The notes below the pieces were generated by a model. The model saw only the letters and a program-made list of their open reading frames with translations. It made no database searches and was not told where the DNA came from. Shown piece after piece: positions 2,052 through 35,203 of a DNA stretch of 45,171 bases. Positions within the stretch are counted from its first letter, which is position 1. Each line of letters starts with the position of its first letter. Position numbers and translations under genes: made by a program. The DNA is taken from sequence record OP251154.1. One strand, given 5' to 3'. Source of the DNA: Escherichia phage TR2.

Positions 2052-2531
2052 TTGTCCATTCAGGAGTAATTTAGCTTCCCGATAAAACTCCATCGCCGCC
2101 TCAACCTCTTCCTCGCTGTACCGCAAGTGGTATGGTAGTCTACTAGGATGCTTACCTTCGTAGACCTTGAAGTTAGGCTCCCAACACTCATTGAGTATTG
2201 CGGGGTGAACATAAACCTTATCGCCAATTAGACATGTAACATTCATCTTGTCGAGCTCTGGGATTAGCTTGTCCTTGATGAGCAACATCACTCCATTACG
2301 CCCAACAAAAGGCTTAACCTTTCGAGCTCCTTCATATACAGACCTGACACCAACCACTCCTTTCCCGTTAACTCCCATCTTCCTGATGATTTTAATTAGC
2401 ACACCAAGCTCATCACCTGAGTACACATCTGACGTATCAATCGAACCCCAGAATGGCGTTGACTGACGATACCCATTTGCATTTATTACGATTCTGACTG
2501 GCGAAAGTCCATCTTGCCTGGCGATATTCAT
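2049..2531 (-). CDS. internally truncated paralog of the P-loop replication protein at 5132..6715
   Basis: N-terminus (RIVINANGYRQSTPFW) and C-terminal ~70 aa (NGKGVVGVRSVYEGARKVKPF...TCLIGDKVY) match the ends of the 527-aa protein; central Walker-A region absent. Confidence 0.6.
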   Translation of the reverse strand: MNIARQDGLSPVRIVINANGYRQSTPFWGSIDTSDVYSGDELGVLIKIIRKMGVNGKGVVGVRSVYEGARKVKPFVGRNGVMLLIKDKLIPELDKMNVTCLIGDKVYVHPAILNECWEPNFKVYEGKHPSRLPYHLRYSEEEVEAAMEFYREAKLLLNGQ

Positions 2532-2572
2532 TACCTGCTATGCTGTTAGTTTGTCATCGTTAAAGTTAAACA

Positions 2573-3061
2573 TTATTTAATCTCCTCAATAATCAAACGA
2601 TAATCTTTAATTGCTTTCATTGCTGCTGCGAGCGCTTCACCTTCATACTCCGATAGGTCTGGCATGACTTTCGATATCTTAGCCTTGAATTCAGTTATTG
2701 CCTCCACCTTGATTGCGTCATTGGTCTTCTTCCTGATACCAATGTTGGCAGTTCCAGGGATCAGTTTGATAACCAGCCTCTTGCCATCTGATAGCTCTGT
2801 CACGCCGAATTGGCTTTTGCCGCTATCTTCATCATAGTAGTGAGTCGCCTTCATACCTGCGTCTCTCAACTCAGGCATGCGAGCTGTTGTGTTGTAGATG
2901 TATGAGCTCTTAAGCTTCTTAATGGAACCATCTTCACTGCCAATAATGCTTTCAATTTTCCTTAGTGAAACGCTGAATTGCTTATCTTCAGATTTTAGAG
3001 CCTGTTTTACCATCTCGCGAATCACTTGACCCAATGTTGCTTTCTCATTCATGTTTATCAC
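2573..3061 (-). CDS. hypothetical protein (162 aa)
   Basis: ORF track; sigma70-like TTGATT-17-TATGAT upstream on minus strand (around plus 3080-3110). Confidence 0.55.
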   Translation of the reverse strand: MINMNEKATLGQVIREMVKQALKSEDKQFSVSLRKIESIIGSEDGSIKKLKSSYIYNTTARMPELRDAGMKATHYYDEDSGKSQFGVTELSDGKRLVIKLIPGTANIGIRKKTNDAIKVEAITEFKAKISKVMPDLSEYEGEALAAAMKAIKDYRLIIEEIK

Positions 3062-3322
3062 TCCTCTCGTTTAGGTTGAATCCATCATATATCGACTTAC
3101 ACACGTAATCAAGTGTAATTTTTGGTAACTTTTAGGTGTGGTTACGCGAAATGGCATCCTAGCCAAGCTATAGCTAAATGTAGTTTGTGGTAACGCCTGT
3201 AACGCATAAATTGGGTGGGGTTGCCCAATACTGGCTATTTCTTCCATAAAATTGCAGATATGTACTCTGATAGGAAAAAACATATATATAGCAGAAGAGC
3301 ACCAGTTACATGACTTACATAC

Positions 3323-3350
3323 AATAATAATAATAATAATAATAATAATA
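3323..3350. repeat. (AAT)9 microsatellite followed by (AT)7 at 3359-3372
   Basis: Perfect trinucleotide repeat read directly; produces the spurious poly-Ile ORF 3252..3509. Confidence 0.9.
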
Positions 3351-3396
3351 GAAAGAAGATATATATATATATTAAGTACTTATAGTGTAAGTCTAG

Positions 3397-3422
3397 GCGT
3401 AGCTTCGCGTAACTCGCGTAAC
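3397..3422. promoter_or_regulatory. three phased iterons GCGTAGC/GCGTAAC/GCGTAAC
   Basis: Starts at 3397, 3407, 3416 (10- and 9-bp spacing); more GTAACGC/GGTTACG sites at 3126-3210 and 3453-3463. Confidence 0.5.
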
Positions 3423-3542
3423 GATAGTGGTTGGCTTACATCGCGCTACGCCGGTTACGTGTATGCGGCAAAATGGCTCGGCCAGAATAAAAATCAACTT
3501 GTATGGTAGTCCATCCACCATTCATTCACCCTCACATCAATA

Positions 3543-3636
3543 ATTGCAAATTCTGCAACAATCAAAAAAATCATTGCATCAGATGCAATATTGCTATATG
3601 TGCAATAATGAGATGAATCATTGCAATAACTGCAAT
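3543..3636. promoter_or_regulatory. array of three ATTGCA-N5-TGCAAT palindromic operator-like sites
   Basis: Sites at 3543-3559 (ATTGCAaattcTGCAAC), 3573-3589 (ATTGCAtcagaTGCAAT), 3620-3636 (ATTGCAataacTGCAAT); same GCA-N5-TGC core as the promoter operator. Confidence 0.5.
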
Positions 3637-3655
3637 AATACATAAACCCAACGAA

Positions 3656-3699
3656 TAGCACTTTTTGCTAATGACAAACATTGGTAACGAGACCATAAT
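3656..3699 (+). promoter_or_regulatory. operator/-10 promoter cassette for the plus-strand early operon
   Basis: TAGCActtttTGCTA at 3656-3670, 23-nt spacer, CATAAT at 3694-3699, leader CATCAACAACGAGGAGAG, ATG at 3727. Confidence 0.55.
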
Positions 3700-3726
3700 G
3701 AATCCATCAACAACGAGGAGAGAGAT

Positions 3727-3924
3727 ATGAAACTTAAAGACGAAGCGTATGAGCAGCTAAAGCAGGAATGCGCTCTGATTGGGTTGAACGAGATGTACAG
3801 CGATATGGTTTTGCGCGGCAAGATTGATATTGACCTCGCTAAGCAATTCCAGTCAGATGATGAGTATCTATGTTGTGATGGCTTGGGCTGTGACGAATGT
3901 TTACCCTGGCAAGGAATGAGATGA
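3727..3924 (+). CDS. hypothetical protein (65 aa)
   Basis: ORF track; first gene of plus-strand operon. Confidence 0.5.
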   Translation: MKLKDEAYEQLKQECALIGLNEMYSDMVLRGKIDIDLAKQFQSDDEYLCCDGLGCDECLPWQGMR

Positions 3925-4115
3925 TGAAAGTTAAGTGCTTAAATAATCTTAATGATGGAACCTGGGAATTTAGAAACGGAAAGCATTACATTTATGATGA
4001 AATTTATGGTTACGTAGTTGGTGACAACTTCAAACCAGTTTACTGCTACATTGATGATGGACGTGTCATTGCAGCAATTAAAAATAGGCTTATTTTTGAA
4101 ACAGTAGAAGGTTAG
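3921..4115 (+). CDS. hypothetical protein (64 aa)
   Basis: ORF track frame; start moved to ATG 3921 (ATGATGA overlap with upstream stop, AAGGAA SD). Confidence 0.5.
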   Translation: MMKVKCLNNLNDGTWEFRNGKHYIYDEIYGYVVGDNFKPVYCYIDDGRVIAAIKNRLIFETVEG

Positions 4116-4116
4116 C

Positions 4117-4320
4117 ATGAAACTACTTTGCACCAATATCATTAAAGACTTTAACGACGCGTTCAATAAGGGCTCTGAATACAACGCTACCGATTTCAAA
4201 GATGACATGTGCCTTGTTACCGGAGAGCGTCCACATAAGCATCACGACACGTTTCAGGCTCTTAAATGCCTTGATTACGTCGTCATCCCAGGAATCGCAA
4301 CTTTTAAGGTGATTGAATAA
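4117..4320 (+). CDS. hypothetical protein (67 aa)
   Basis: ORF track; tightly packed in operon. Confidence 0.5.
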   Translation: MKLLCTNIIKDFNDAFNKGSEYNATDFKDDMCLVTGERPHKHHDTFQALKCLDYVVIPGIATFKVIE

Positions 4321-4481
4321 TGCTATTACCATCTGAGATTAACTATTTTGATCTGGAAGTTATTAGTTCTTACAGCGGCAAGGGCTGGCCTTGCGGGGAA
4401 TGGTTCAACGAGGACTTGCTTGAATCTCACGAGATTATGCTTAAGGCGATTGAGAAGGCGAGAAATAGCACGAATTGCTAA
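4320..4481 (+). CDS. small hypothetical protein (53 aa)
   Basis: Manually translated MLLPSEINYFDLEV...ARNSTNC; ATG overlaps upstream stop; last codons are the operator sequence. Confidence 0.45.
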   Translation: MLLPSEINYFDLEVISSYSGKGWPCGEWFNEDLLESHEIMLKAIEKARNSTNC

Positions 4482-4508
4482 AGCCCTTCGGGGCTTTTGT
4501 TGTATAGT
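4466..4508 (+). promoter_or_regulatory. operator/-10 promoter cassette
   Basis: TAGCAcgaatTGCTA at 4466-4480, 22-nt spacer holding hairpin GCCCttcgGGGC plus T-run, TATAGT at 4503-4508, then CATCGAAACGAAA. Confidence 0.55.
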
Positions 4509-5131: not shown

Positions 5132-6715
5132 ATGTTTGATTTCAACGAAGATAAACTATCTGTTGAACAAGTTATGGCGATTGCCGCGACCGACAACCTC
5201 CCACCGCTTCGCGTTGCCATTAATGCAAATGGCTATCGGCAGTCTCAATCATTCTGGAAAACACCTGTGGAGATTGACGCAGGTAATGACAAGTACCCTG
5301 TAATATCTCTAGGCAATGACATTGATGTTGTTGGTAAGCTCTCGGCAAATATTGCTCGCTCAGTTCAGTTCCCAGAGTCATCAGCATACATGCACTTTTT
5401 GGGTTGTGTGTCCGCTGCGATGCTAGGGCGCTTTACTGTTGAGTATCACGGAACCCAGCAGCCAACATCGCTTTACGTGGTAACTAGCCAGCCGCCATCT
5501 ACTGGTAAGTCAGCCATTAACTCTCTGTCAATTGCGCCAATGATTGCTGAGACTGAGCGTTTGAACGAGGTGCGTAAACGTGACCGCAAAAAGATTATGG
5601 CTAAGCTGTCTGCGCTAGCAAAAGAAATGAAACAGGAGAAGTCACCATCTGAGATGGCTTCACTGTTTGAGGAGAAGGAAGATTTAGAGGAAAAGCTCGA
5701 GAAGCTGTGCGATATCGTATTCCCGGTCTCAGATACTACGCCAGAAGGTCTTGCACGAATCAACAACCGCCAGGGTAACTTTGCGGTCATCTCGGATGAG
5801 GCAACAAGCGTCAACTCATTATTGGGCATGACATACGGTGATGGTTCCAAGAAAACGAACAGCGAGCTTGTACTTAAAGCGTGGGATGCTGGTAACGTAT
5901 CTATTGCCCGCGCTAACGCAGAAAACAACATGAGTTTCGTGGCAATGGGGTGCATCTCTGTAATTGCTCAGGATGAAACAATCAATGCGATTATGAATGC
6001 TGGTGCGCGTGGTATTGGTGTTTCCGAGCGTTTCCTTCTGGTGCGTGAAAAGTCATTTCTTGGAGACCGCGTGTTTGTTGATGAGAATGGCGATTCAACA
6101 TACGAGGCTATTGATGATGGTCTTAAAGCAGACTATTTCCGTCTCGTTCATGAAATTATGAATGAAGTTGAAGTGAAACTGACAGTAAGTGCGTCATCCA
6201 TGCGCTACCTTAACCGAGCTCGCCAGGAAATGGAACCGCATCTTGGTGATGGCGGTAAATATTCCCACACGATGTTACGTGGTGCTCTTGGTAAATTTGA
6301 TAAGCAAGCAATCCGTATTGCCTCAGTATTGCACGTTATTCGCAACTGGTTCGCACCGGCAGGGTCGAGTCCGCAGAAATCAAGAGAGATTGAGCTTGAA
6401 ACAATGCAAGAAGCGGTTATGATTTTCCACGAGTTAAGCAAGACTTATTTGTCGTCCGCTAGTGCTGCTGGTCATGCTGGTGATAATGCTGAAATGAATA
6501 AGCTGGTTGATATCCTGATTAAGCAAGGTAAGAATGGGAAGGGTGTTGTTGGCGTTCGCTCACTGTATGAAGCAGCACGCAAAGTTAAACCTTTTGAAGG
6601 ACAGGCTGGCGTAATGACTCGCATCAAGGACCACTTGGTTCCTATGCTTGATGAGAAAAACTATACATGCCTGATTGGTGATAAGATTTACATTAATCCG
6701 CGATTGTTGGGGTGA
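5132..6715 (+). CDS. putative replication initiator/helicase-like P-loop NTPase (527 aa)
   Basis: Walker-A-like TSQPPSTGKSA; has its own promoter cassette; N- and C-terminal segments duplicated in 2049..2531. Confidence 0.6.
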   Translation: MFDFNEDKLSVEQVMAIAATDNLPPLRVAINANGYRQSQSFWKTPVEIDAGNDKYPVISLGNDIDVVGKLSANIARSVQFPESSAYMHFLGCVSAAMLGRFTVEYHGTQQPTSLYVVTSQPPSTGKSAINSLSIAPMIAETERLNEVRKRDRKKIMAKLSALAKEMKQEKSPSEMASLFEEKEDLEEKLEKLCDIVFPVSDTTPEGLARINNRQGNFAVISDEATSVNSLLGMTYGDGSKKTNSELVLKAWDAGNVSIARANAENNMSFVAMGCISVIAQDETINAIMNAGARGIGVSERFLLVREKSFLGDRVFVDENGDSTYEAIDDGLKADYFRLVHEIMNEVEVKLTVSASSMRYLNRARQEMEPHLGDGGKYSHTMLRGALGKFDKQAIRIASVLHVIRNWFAPAGSSPQKSREIELETMQEAVMIFHELSKTYLSSASAAGHAGDNAEMNKLVDILIKQGKNGKGVVGVRSLYEAARKVKPFEGQAGVMTRIKDHLVPMLDEKNYTCLIGDKIYINPRLLG

Positions 6716-14483: not shown

Positions 14484-14524
14484 TTTAAATATCCTGATAG
14501 TTCTTTAGTTCGTTGCATTGATGT

Positions 14525-14566
14525 ATAATAACAGCCATCGAACCCATTGTTTAACAAAAAGTGCTA
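14525..14566 (-). promoter_or_regulatory. operator/-10 promoter cassette for helicase operon, inside a divergent region
   Basis: Plus 14552-14566 TAACAaaaagTGCTA; minus -10 TATTAT at plus 14525-14530 (21-nt spacer) overlaps a plus-strand TATAAT at 14524-14529. Confidence 0.5.
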
Positions 14567-14579
14567 TTGAGGTAATGAG

Positions 14580-18155: not shown

Positions 18156-18185
18156 AAAAGCCCCGAAAGGGGCTTTATCTTTTAT
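18153..18185. terminator. bidirectional rho-independent terminator
   Basis: A-run, GCCCC-gaaa-GGGGC, T-rich run; between convergent genes. Confidence 0.7.
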
Positions 18186-18604
18186 CAGAAAGGAATATTG
18201 TCAGCTTCAAACTGCTGTTGTGGCTGCGGCTGTCGTTGTTGCTGCTGCTGCTGTTGTTTTTTCTGCTGCTGCTGCCCACCTTCACCGCGCTGACTAAACT
18301 CAAGTCGAGGATTGTTCATATTAATGGTTACATACGTCTTACCATCTTTATCACGAACATCTACAGCCAAAGTTTCGCAACTTACGCTAACAACCTTACC
18401 TTCCTGAAACGCTTCGTCATACCATGCAAGCATTGACTCTTTTGCGAAGAAGGCGGCTCGATAGTTACTGTAATGCGCCTGTTCATCCTTATCCTTGTAG
18501 CGCTCACTCAAATCAACCGCGTACATTTTCCAGGTGCCATTTGCATTCTGACCTTCTTTAGTAAACGGAGCGCGACGGATAACACCAGTAATTACGTGAC
18601 TCAT
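18185..18604 (-). CDS. single-stranded DNA-binding protein
   Basis: OB-fold-like N-terminus, Gln-rich linker, acidic tail ending DNIPF. Confidence 0.8.
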   Translation of the reverse strand: MSHVITGVIRRAPFTKEGQNANGTWKMYAVDLSERYKDKDEQAHYSNYRAAFFAKESMLAWYDEAFQEGKVVSVSCETLAVDVRDKDGKTYVTINMNNPRLEFSQRGEGGQQQQKKQQQQQQQRQPQPQQQFEADNIPF

Positions 18605-22037: not shown

Positions 22038-22110
22038 GGGTATGGGTGGCGATCAATACTGTATAAAATCACATGATATAAAAATTATAACCGGAACACT
22101 CCAAAACAGT

Positions 22111-22277
22111 AGTTACATGATATACACAGTAATATATATAATAATAATAATAAAAGTAAAAGGTTGATATATATAGATATTTTAATGTAACTATGGCGTA
22201 ACTTTGCGTAACTGGGCGTATACGATTTCCCGCGGATGCATATGGTATACATCGAGTTACATCGGTTACGTGTAACC
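22111..22277. repeat. noncoding module B (homolog of module A at 3305..3466)
   Basis: TTACATGA, (AT)4(ATA)4, GATATATATAGATATTTT, iterons, ACATCG, palindrome GGTTAC-GT-GTAACC at 22264-22277. Confidence 0.7.
22196..22222. promoter_or_regulatory. three phased iterons GCGTAAC/GCGTAAC/GCGTATA
   Basis: Starts at 22196, 22206, 22216 (exact 10-bp spacing). Confidence 0.5.
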
Positions 22278-22304
22278 ATGATTTATGGGTAGACTTGAGA
22301 TAAA

Positions 22305-22347
22305 TAGCACGATTTGCTAAAGACAAGCTGCAATATTTGGGCATATT
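22305..22347 (+). promoter_or_regulatory. operator/-10 promoter cassette (weak -10)
   Basis: TAGCAcgattTGCTA at 22305-22319, 22-nt spacer, CATATT at 22342-22347. Confidence 0.45.
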
Positions 22348-22445
22348 GTGCGCATGACGGCAATGGTGCTGCCATCCAACCTAAATTTCAGGCTGGGAAC
22401 CAAAGTGATGGCTCAGATTTGAGCCATGAAAAAACCAGAAGAGAG

Positions 22446-22589
22446 ATGAAAATGAACCTAACTCTACTAAATGAAGATGTAAAAATGAACAGTTATCAGT
22501 TTTTGAATGAAGTTATCAACCCAGCGAGGTTAGTTGCCGGTGAATCTGATGTTCGGCACAATGACTTTGTTGAGAGGATAGAGGATTAG
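22446..22589 (+). CDS. small hypothetical protein (47 aa)
   Basis: Internal Met of ORF 22314..22589 after purine-rich SD; the 5' part of that ORF overlaps the promoter. Confidence 0.3.
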   Translation: MKMNLTLLNEDVKMNSYQFLNEVINPARLVAGESDVRHNDFVERIED

Positions 22590-22673
22590 CTTGAGGGGTT
22601 TGAGTTTGACTACGAAAGTTTCGTAATCAAAAGTGAGGGGAGAGGGGGTTATAGAAAGTCAATCAACTCACCA

Positions 22674-23129
22674 GTGCTTAATATGGAACAGATGCTTCTT
22701 GTTGGAATGCGTGAGTCAAAGTCTGTTCGCCGTGCGGTTCTTAATAAGCTTAAAGAGATGCAGTCCACCATCAACAAACAAACGGAAGTAATCAGCCAGA
22801 TGGTGAGTATTGATGAGCTAAAAGAAGCGCGCGTGATGCTTGGTGTGGCTAATGCGCAGAACGCTCACCTTAGCCAGCGAATCGTTGCGGAGCAGCGAAT
22901 CAATGAAATCCTCCTTATGGATAAGAACATTGACGAGAAGCTTGACCTTCTCGCTTGTGAAGCTCGGCAGTCTTGGGTATCACGTTCCGATGAAATGGAA
23001 GCAAGGTTTAGGTATGAAGCACAATGTTTCGCTCTTAAAGAGAAGACTGACGCACTGGCAGGATTGATCGAGAATAAACTTGGTATCGACATTAAGCCGT
23101 TGCTGGAAAGAAGCAGCACGAATAGCTAA
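22674..23129 (+). CDS. hypothetical coiled-coil protein (151 aa); start uncertain
   Basis: ORF track (GTG 22674 or ATG 22683); C-terminal codons SSTNS-stop are the next operator. Confidence 0.5.
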   Translation: MLNMEQMLLVGMRESKSVRRAVLNKLKEMQSTINKQTEVISQMVSIDELKEARVMLGVANAQNAHLSQRIVAEQRINEILLMDKNIDEKLDLLACEARQSWVSRSDEMEARFRYEAQCFALKEKTDALAGLIENKLGIDIKPLLERSSTNS

Positions 23130-29859: not shown

Positions 29860-30615
29860 TTAGTTCTGATTATTCTTAGCTTGTAAACTTGCGGAGGCAC
29901 ACCCCCCAAATGATAGCTGGTTGTTTTCACCAAACCTCAACTTACAGGCATCAACAGTTCCGGCGCAAAAATCTAACCCAGGGTCATCAACCGGATTATT
30001 GTCTTTGTCGAAGTAGCGATTCCCAGCATAATCGCAACCGTTGCCACTGCGATACCATCCACGAGAAGCAAAGTAACATACTGACTGGACTAGCCTCGCT
30101 GGAATATAGATACCATCCATATCAATTGGGCTAGATAACTCAAAAGAGGCAGTCTTGTAGTCAACCTGCTTTGGACGCTCAATAAAGTAAACCATCTTAC
30201 GATAATCGCCATCTGCAATGCTGCCATCATCATTGATATTATCCCTGATAGTAACCCAGATTGTTACCTTCGCCTGAACCATGCCATTGTACTGACGGAT
30301 TAGCGAGGAAACAGCCTGGTCAACGTTTGATAAAGTTAGCGTGAGCTTGTTTGCTTTTCCATCAGATGTAAGGTTGATGCCGCTAATGCCGAAAGGTCTG
30401 GCTCCATACTCTTCGCCACGAAATGTAATTGTCTTGGCTGGTAGTGGCTGACCAGATGCCTGGGCTTGCATGATTTCTTCAGGCGTGTATGAGATATTCT
30501 CCCCATGAAACCTGTAAACCCTTGCGCCGAACTTGCTGCCATCAACCTCAATAAGCGTAACCACTTCACCAGGGAAAAGTGATTGAAGTTGGTTTTCAAA
30601 CTTTACACTTGCCAT
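29860..30615 (-). CDS. minor tail protein (lambda gpL-like)
   Basis: Synteny TMP-M-L-K-I-J; size close to gpL; C-terminal Cys cluster. Confidence 0.65.
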   Translation of the reverse strand: MASVKFENQLQSLFPGEVVTLIEVDGSKFGARVYRFHGENISYTPEEIMQAQASGQPLPAKTITFRGEEYGARPFGISGINLTSDGKANKLTLTLSNVDQAVSSLIRQYNGMVQAKVTIWVTIRDNINDDGSIADGDYRKMVYFIERPKQVDYKTASFELSSPIDMDGIYIPARLVQSVCYFASRGWYRSGNGCDYAGNRYFDKDNNPVDDPGLDFCAGTVDACKLRFGENNQLSFGGCASASLQAKNNQN

Positions 30616-35199: not shown

Positions 35200-35203
35200 T
35201 CAA

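Follow-up and report, generated by a model that had tools for sequence, protein, structure and literature searches.

In HSV-1 oriS and in the core origins of polyomaviruses and papillomaviruses, inverted sites for the initiator helicase flank an (AT)-rich spacer, and the length of this spacer matters. The pac site of phage P1 carries hexamer repeats on both sides of the cleavage region, beside bendable DNA. In bacterial contingency loci, which include the (TA)n tract between the -35 and -10 elements of Haemophilus hif and the tetranucleotide repeats in Neisseria and Haemophilus genes, the repeats differ in length between close isolates. T1-like phages often contaminate E. coli fermentations and are also included in therapy collections.

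The origins of Staphylococcus aureus pathogenicity islands (SaPIs) carry 6–12 iterons of five or six nucleotides around a central AT-rich region; at least two iterons lie on each side, and the two sets face in opposite directions (PMC9371898). The self-loading Rep helicase binds them through its C-terminal winged helix, and two of its hexamers are thought to load flanking the AT region (PMC9371898). According to two genome papers, no origin has been found in T1-like phages (PMC7718038, PMC11447400), and our literature search found no paper that identifies an origin of these phages and none that describes the modules analyzed below. Here, we interpret the (AAT)9-GAAAGAAG-(AT)7 segment of a T1-like phage as an AT-rich core that melts readily within a conserved site of nucleoprotein assembly; this core would most likely be the DNA-unwinding element of an origin. 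This assignment is derived from comparative sequence analysis, and we hold it with slightly less than even confidence.

The repeat tracts and the two modules

The window analyzed here is a 45,171-nucleotide stretch of DNA (OP251154.1) from Escherichia phage TR2, a lytic T1-like siphovirus of E. coli (Drexlerviridae, Braunvirinae). Over positions 2500–4500, the window matches Escherichia phage TR3 at 100% identity and CY1 at 99.5%. A non-coding gap of 665 bp (3062–3726) lies between two divergent operons, which run leftward from 3061 and rightward from 3727. Within the gap, a perfect trinucleotide tract, (AAT)9.3 (3323–3350, 28 nt), and a perfect dinucleotide tract, (AT)7 (3359–3372, 14 nt), make up the left and right parts of the AT-rich core of module A and are separated by the purine spacer GAAAGAAG (3351–3358). 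Read together with the last A of the AAT tract (3350), the spacer becomes AGAAAGAAG, which is found in 11 of 13 module A variants and has AAGTAAAAGG as its type 2 counterpart.

The AAT tract was recovered by TRF with 100% matches, and a direct scan identified the AAT and AT tracts as the longest tri- and dinucleotide runs of the window. In first-order Markov shuffles, the longest trinucleotide run reached at most 15 nt (300 shuffles of the whole window) or 16 nt (2000 shuffles of the gap), compared with the 28 nt observed, so that the AAT tract is much too long to be a chance occurrence. At 14 nt, the AT run reaches but does not exceed the maximum of the same shuffles of the whole window and the AT-rich gap and, taken alone, is only marginal. 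The next-longest AT-only trinucleotide run of the window is a 16-nt ATA run, (ATA)5.3, located at 22138–22153 inside a second module, module B. Imperfect (TGC)n and tandem repeats of 18–21 nt also occur at 18212–18275, within a minus-strand open reading frame (18185–18604). The initial annotation had singled out perfect (AAT)9 and (AT)7 tracts of unusual length, with a shorter version in module B, and had placed them in a regulatory region between the leftward gene 2573–3061 (−) and an "iteron array" that corresponds to the TGCAAT array at 3532–3655. The tracts, their location and the shorter (ATA)5.3 version were all confirmed, with unusual length clear for AAT and marginal for AT, and the setting is a non-coding regulatory or initiation region between divergent operons.

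An open reading frame across the tracts (3252–3509), which would encode a poly-Ile repeat, is interrupted by stop codons in most relatives; a coding repeat was thus ruled out, and the AAT and AT repeats are non-coding. A search for a known RNA family at the locus with Rfam gave sub-threshold chance matches only. The (AAT)n tract could presumably also be read as a series of NATWAT hexamers, a unit proposed for Fur binding, or as TAA triplets resembling a "DnaA-trio", and both readings are speculation on our part; neither a Fur box nor a DnaA box context was found around (AAT)n.

In module A, two YGTAAS hexamers precede the AT core, which is followed by four hexamers of opposite orientation and then by another three that are inverted again. 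The left hexamers, GTTACA (3305–3310) and CTTACA (3314–3319), lie 9 bp apart on the (−) strand, opposite in orientation to the right-hand sites. The right sites (3386–3422, +) are TGTAAG at 3386, GCGTAGC at 3397 and GCGTAAC at 3407 and 3416, spaced by roughly 9–12 bp. To the right of these four sites, a third set in inverted orientation (3435–3459, −) consists of CTTACA at 3435, GCTACGC at 3445 and GTTACG at 3454. The left and right sites contain a perfect 8-bp inverted repeat formed by GACTTACA (3312–3319) and TGTAAGTC (3386–3393), and a second perfect 8-bp inverted repeat, GGCGTAGC/GCTACGCC, is found at the 3435–3459 sites.

Module B (22112–22270) is a paralogue of module A in the gap 22038–22445 and contains a 59-bp AT core (22127–22185). 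Its sites are laid out as in module A, in the order GTTACA, TATACA, core, TGTAAC, CGTAAC, CGTAAC, CGTATAC, GTATACA, GTTACA and GTTACG. Module A has nine sites of the YGTAAS type, and module B has nine or ten. The hexamers cluster at 10 and 7 per 200 bp in the two modules, compared with no more than 4 elsewhere in the genome, with a motif that was defined post hoc from these regions.

Module A and the genes to its left form a mosaic unit, as observed when window positions 3062–3480 are compared with the phages TR1, 12210I, phiA2-1 and IME542. To the right of about 3480, TR1 is near-identical to the window and carries scattered substitutions only. The TR1 module A has other site types (GTATAC and CGTAAA), another core variant and another variant of the neighboring DUF7174 protein (34% identity). 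The module A core of 12210I resembles the module B core of the window, a likeness in sequence that suggests exchange between modules.

Length, conservation and stability of the AT-rich core

The homologous region was collected from 13 GenBank phages and from assembled contigs that encode the neighboring DUF7174 protein. Core length, defined as the stretch between the flanking TTACATA and YGTAAG, was compared among 13 distinct variants of the window's core type. The 28- and 14-nt tracts and the 64-bp core are unchanged in 10 of the 13 module A variants, in which the aligned region is about 70–84% identical to the window. Differences inside the tracts of these ten equal-length variants are point substitutions (AAT to ATT). 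In the three exceptions (L027, L031 and L039/L040), the AAT tract is longer by 3 nt and the AT tract is shorter by 2 or 4 nt (12 or 10 nt), which yields cores of 65, 65 and 63 bp. The net change is 1 bp, and the core remains at 64 ± 1 bp, with interruption patterns that differ among the three loci. Three haplotypes of the window's clade, found in GenBank isolates and sequencing runs from three accession series, all carry (AAT)9 and (AT)7. Moreover, the module B core measures 59 bp in all nine phages examined, which represent at least four genera, and 42 of 43 near-identical Veterinaerplatzvirus isolates share a record length of 44,219 bp. In IMG/VR, a variable-gap pattern scan returned three loci only, all with a match length of 69 nt and all duplicates of GenBank phages, and a metagenome scan with the DUF7174 alignment returned two loci only.

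These lengths bear on a proposal of the initial annotation, namely that the repeats may constitute a contingency locus. In such a phase-variable locus, slippage of (AAT)n and (AT)n would reset the spacing of regulatory elements and switch the neighboring genes within phage populations. Like described contingency loci, the locus combines perfect short tandem repeats with a non-coding control region whose spacing would depend on their number, and perfect repeats of nine and seven units can slip in principle. Some length changes did occur during evolution, and the cores of TR1 and phiA2-1 are one ATA unit apart. In addition, four Logan contigs (L020, L021, L024 and L025; independent assemblies, one of 37 kb) end at (AAT)9 or no more than 6 nt past it, at the window equivalent of 3349–3356. 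These breaks could reflect read length heterogeneity, but they are equally explained by coverage loss in DNA that is 92–100% AT. Contingency loci differ in length between close isolates, whereas the length here is conserved or compensated: it is equal in most variants and throughout the window's clade, it is invariant in module B, and total genome length is shared by nearly all of the near-identical isolates. A comparison of repeat numbers among relatives had been set beforehand as the test of the proposal, and the polymorphism that it uncovered is slight and in every case compensated to a net 1 bp. By this comparison the contingency locus is largely refuted, and we assign it a very low probability.

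One element of the proposal survives. A change in repeat number would alter the spacing between the flanking elements, and this spacing is evidently important, given that no uncompensated length change was seen; the use of such changes as a switch did not find support. Because length is unchanged or compensated among relatives, the combined tract length is, as far as the alignments indicate, kept constant by selection and not exploited for variation. The repeats can apparently slip over evolutionary time, and the distance that they span appears to be under purifying selection, which is the opposite of a contingency locus. Core length does differ between module types (57–67 bp), and no universal helical phasing can thus be assigned to the cores.

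Conservation of the tracts also argues against their being neutral low-complexity DNA without a function of its own, a reading that draws on the frequency of AT-rich simple sequence in non-coding phage DNA. In ten relatives with 68–84% overall identity, the tracts are 95% identical, compared with 92% for the left sites, 90% for the right sites and 42–75% for the neighboring non-coding DNA, and they are thus the best-conserved part of the 3062–3726 gap. With this conservation, the compensated lengths, the duplication of the structure and a position that is kept as far as T1, neutral DNA is the least probable of the explanations considered.

By nearest-neighbor dG, duplex stability in the 45-kb window is lowest at the two module cores (z = 5.7 and 5.2, with the next segment at 3.7), and they rank as the least stable at every scan size tried. 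In phage T1, the least stable segments (208–277 and 30000–30069; z = 6.1 and 5.8) are homologous to modules A and B, respectively. The first is located between the left end of the genome, where the terminal repeat starts, and the first gene, and the second is located between cor and the exonuclease VIII gene. The T1 cores consist of (TA)n runs and a T8 run without a long AAT run and are flanked by sites of the GCGTAAT/TGTAAC type. Rogunavirinae retain the (ATA)n part but lack the (AT)n part. Given these counterparts in T1 and Rogunavirinae, an extreme-AT core between inverted hexamer arrays appears to be ancient in Drexlerviridae, T1 included, and the perfect microsatellites are one lineage's version of it.

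Neighboring genes, promoters and the packaging site

A DUF3987 MCM-like replicative helicase is encoded at 5132–6715 (+). Six small genes separate it from module A, which lies 1.4 kb to its left, and module B is about 15 kb away. In the predicted structural model (pLDDT 87), the best structural match is to MCM subunits, and the C-terminal end adopts a winged-helix topology. This model and the family literature make the helicase a candidate initiator; the DUF3987 family is classed among the SF6 replicative helicases with a C-terminal wHTH (PMC4889955). PDB sequence searches with the helicase and with the DUF7174 profile gave no significant match. The helicase did not match the SaPI Rep structures, and membership in the SaPI Rep group is therefore not claimed for it.

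Two genes to the left of module A encode further candidates. The first (2049–2531, −) encodes a 160-aa mini-helicase, which sequence comparison identifies as an internally deleted paralogue of the helicase without the ATPase domain. Mini-helicase residues 1–55 are 46% identical to helicase residues 15–73, and residues 37–113 are 61% identical to the C-terminal winged helix of the helicase (residues 448–526). The mini-helicase may compete with the helicase for its DNA sites or regulate it there. Its gene is also conserved beside that of DUF7174 in TR1 and 12210I, where it encodes 176 and 140 aa, respectively. The second gene, that of the DUF7174 protein (2573–3052, −; open reading frame to 3061), encodes 159 residues from the ATG at 3052, and its product is a candidate binder of the module A sites. 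The predicted DUF7174 fold contains an N-terminal winged-helix-like part and two long helices.

The DUF7174 gene variant is co-inherited with the type of site in module A. TR1, which carries GTATAC and CGTAAA sites in module A, encodes a helicase 99.6% identical to that of the window, while the DUF7174 proteins are 34% and the mini-helicases 71% identical. In this comparison, no co-variation of the helicase C-terminal domain with the module A site type was found; the helicase is near-identical in TR1 despite the other site type, and its winged helix thus does not co-vary with the module A sites. The co-variation of DUF7174 and the mini-helicase with site type could be mere linkage.

Module B is flanked by a Rha-family gene and an anti-repressor-like gene. 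Paralogy between DUF7174 and a 135-aa gene to the left of module B was considered, and none was found. The anti-repressor/KilA-like gene to the right of module B (22446–23129, +) is a 684-nt frame with a single in-frame TAG at codon 48 (22587–22589), and its CY1 homologue is annotated as a single CDS of the same 684 nt. The TAG codon could be a nonsense mutation, a sequencing error or a sign of growth on a suppressor host.

T1-like phages contain a family of 21-nt intergenic repeats with the consensus aaATAGCACnnnTTGnTAAAA (PMC11447400), the function of which is described as an open question in the TLS paper. The microsatellites do not match this consensus, and separate copies of the 21-nt repeat are located downstream of the modules at 3655 and 22304. 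The pattern ATAGCAC-N5-TTGNTAA occurs in twelve copies in the window, at 3655, 4465, 15059 and 22304 on the (+) strand and at 35200, 19922, 19368, 16637, 14567, 12076, 9736 and 2052 on the (−) strand. Most 21-nt copies run into a -35-like hexamer of the AAGACA/ATGACA type and then a -10-like hexamer, an arrangement suggesting that the repeat may be an upstream promoter element or an activator site. At 3655–3699 (+), the promoter scan identified a rightward promoter that combines an ATAGCAC-N5-TGCTAA repeat with the -35 hexamer ATGACA, a 17-bp spacer and the -10 hexamer CATAAT.

The positions of the modules would also suit a transcriptional control hub, in which the hexamer arrays serve as operators or activator sites for a phage regulator of the divergent early operons. 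The regulator would be DUF7174 or the Rha or anti-repressor-like proteins encoded beside module B, and the AT core would supply promoter or UP-element DNA or, as a flexible spacer, allow the arrays to be bridged. Each module occupies a junction between divergently transcribed blocks, and the genome has three such junctions in all. DUF7174, in addition to its winged-helix-like fold and its co-inheritance with site type, has a homologue named "predicted transcriptional regulator" in one database source. Sigma-70-like matches (9 of 12 positions) pair GTTACA or CTTACA as the -35 hexamer with AATAAT within the tract as the -10 hexamer, and other annotators predicted promoters inside the module B core. 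However, promoter-like matches in the core are weak and no commoner than in shuffles (5 versus 3.8 ± 2.2 and 4 versus 3.1 ± 1.9), and better promoters lie outside the module A core in both directions, at 3671–3699 (10 of 12 matches) and at 3112–3084. The third divergent junction (about 14484–14579) has ATAGCAC promoters but no such module. A control hub also leaves unexplained why the cores are the two least stable segments in both TR2 and T1. A literature search for transcription start-site data for Drexlerviridae found none. On balance, a control hub is an unlikely explanation, although it retains appreciable weight.

Module A is also close to the packaging site. A conserved block, AATAAAAATCAACTTGTATGGTAGTC (3486–3515), contains the probable pac site, at which the first headful cut would be made at about 3513/3514. 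The TR1 pac position determined by PhageTerm (3615; PMC10450929) corresponds by alignment to window position 3514, and the terminus of the Rao1 record corresponds to 3513. This places the probable cut ~140 bp rightward of (AT)7. Farther to the right, an array of about eight TGCAA(T/C) repeats (3532–3655), which the TR1 record labels the initial packaging site, is a candidate terminase recognition region.

Module A might accordingly be an accessory part of an extended pac site, comparable to P1 pac or SPP1 pacL/pacR, where the terminase or a helper would bind the phased hexamers and the AT core would bend. The short distance to the cut fits such a role, as does the cut sequence TTGTATGGTAGTC, which is an 85% inverted copy of the left module site and its flank GACTTACATACAA. 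Many database records, moreover, begin or end in the 3062–3726 gap. Module B shares the architecture of module A but contains neither the conserved AATCAACTTGTATGGTAGTC block nor a TGCAAT array, so that the module is separable from pac, and no packaging start has been reported at module B. A packaging role is therefore improbable. The locus resembles P1 pac in its flanking hexamers, its bendable DNA and the proximity of module A to the cut, and it differs from P1 pac in that module B has the same structure without pac sequences and in that the hexamers are not Dam sites.

A candidate origin and its counterparts in known systems

The length constraint, the conservation, the low duplex stability, the site architecture and the SaPI-like layout together lead to the reading of the AT-rich core as a candidate origin. 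In the proposed mechanism, a phage DNA-binding protein would occupy the phased hexamers on both sides of the core, and the C-terminal winged helix of the MCM-like DUF3987 helicase is the candidate for this binder. The DUF7174 protein and the ATPase-less helicase paralogue would act as co-factors or regulators. The low-stability core between the hexamers would then melt, and helicase hexamers would load on either side of it, in the manner suggested for SaPI Rep. Slippage variants that alter the spacing of the site arrays would be selected against or would require compensating changes.

A more elaborate scheme is possible and is held more tentatively than the assignment of the core itself. In this scheme, Drexlerviridae would have two paralogous origins, each with a fixed-length, extreme-AT core between 6-bp iterons of opposed orientation, at which the DUF3987 helicase would load itself. 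DUF7174 and the mini-helicase would set specificity or limit initiation, and origin A would be coupled to pac.

The anatomy of the modules, their conservation and their low duplex stability favor the origin reading, under which binding, melting and initiation would be expected at the modules. Several observations weigh on the other side. The helicase has no PDB match to SaPI Rep and is nearly invariant in TR1, core length differs among module types (57–67 bp), and the helicase gene is not adjacent to either module. Furthermore, divergent early promoters must be located in the same places as the modules, and the pac cut is ~140 bp from module A, which leaves a transcriptional or packaging role some weight. 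The GC-skew profile of the window is dominated by gene orientation and is uninformative on the position of an origin.

The analysis provides two precise candidate origins for T1-like phages and a short list of candidate binding proteins. If true, the origin reading would give a position for the T1-like origin and extend the SaPI-Rep style of initiation to lytic coliphages. If it is wrong, module A would still be a family-wide conserved control element next to the pac site. The locus is also a clear example of perfect microsatellites that appear to be held at a fixed combined length by selection and do not act as mutational switches, and it cautions that not every long perfect repeat in a control region is a contingency locus.

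Among known origins, those of phage lambda and of iteron plasmids (RepE, Pi and RepA) differ from the modules, in which the sites are 6–7 bp long, located on both sides of the core and inverted. HSV-1 oriS and the polyomavirus and papillomavirus core origins resemble the modules in plan, with inverted sites around an AT-rich spacer of constrained length. They belong, however, to eukaryotic viruses with unrelated proteins, and their spacers are much shorter, at about 18 bp in oriS, and lack a triplet repeat.

The SaPI Rep origins show both likenesses and differences. A SaPI origin lies directly downstream of its rep gene, whereas module A is upstream of the helicase gene and module B is distant from it. 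No sequence homology is detectable between the phage helicase and the SaPI Rep structures, and binding and melting at the phage modules are proposed from sequence. The phage system further differs in having two modules per genome, in belonging to a lytic E. coli siphovirus and in encoding the additional DUF7174 protein and ATPase-less paralogue. SaPI Rep is a self-loading AAA+ helicase with a C-terminal winged helix, and the MCM-like helicase encoded near module A, with its predicted C-terminal winged helix, would be its counterpart. The number of sites in each module (nine in module A; nine or ten in module B), counted with the post hoc motif, falls within the range of 6–12 iterons of SaPI origins. 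Two (−) sites, the 64-bp core and four (+) sites in module A, and a similar arrangement in module B, reproduce the central AT region with at least two opposed iterons on each side. As in the SaPI Rep origins (Ubeda 2007, 2012; Qiao 2022, PMC9371898), two sets of short iterons are thus arranged around a central AT-rich region.
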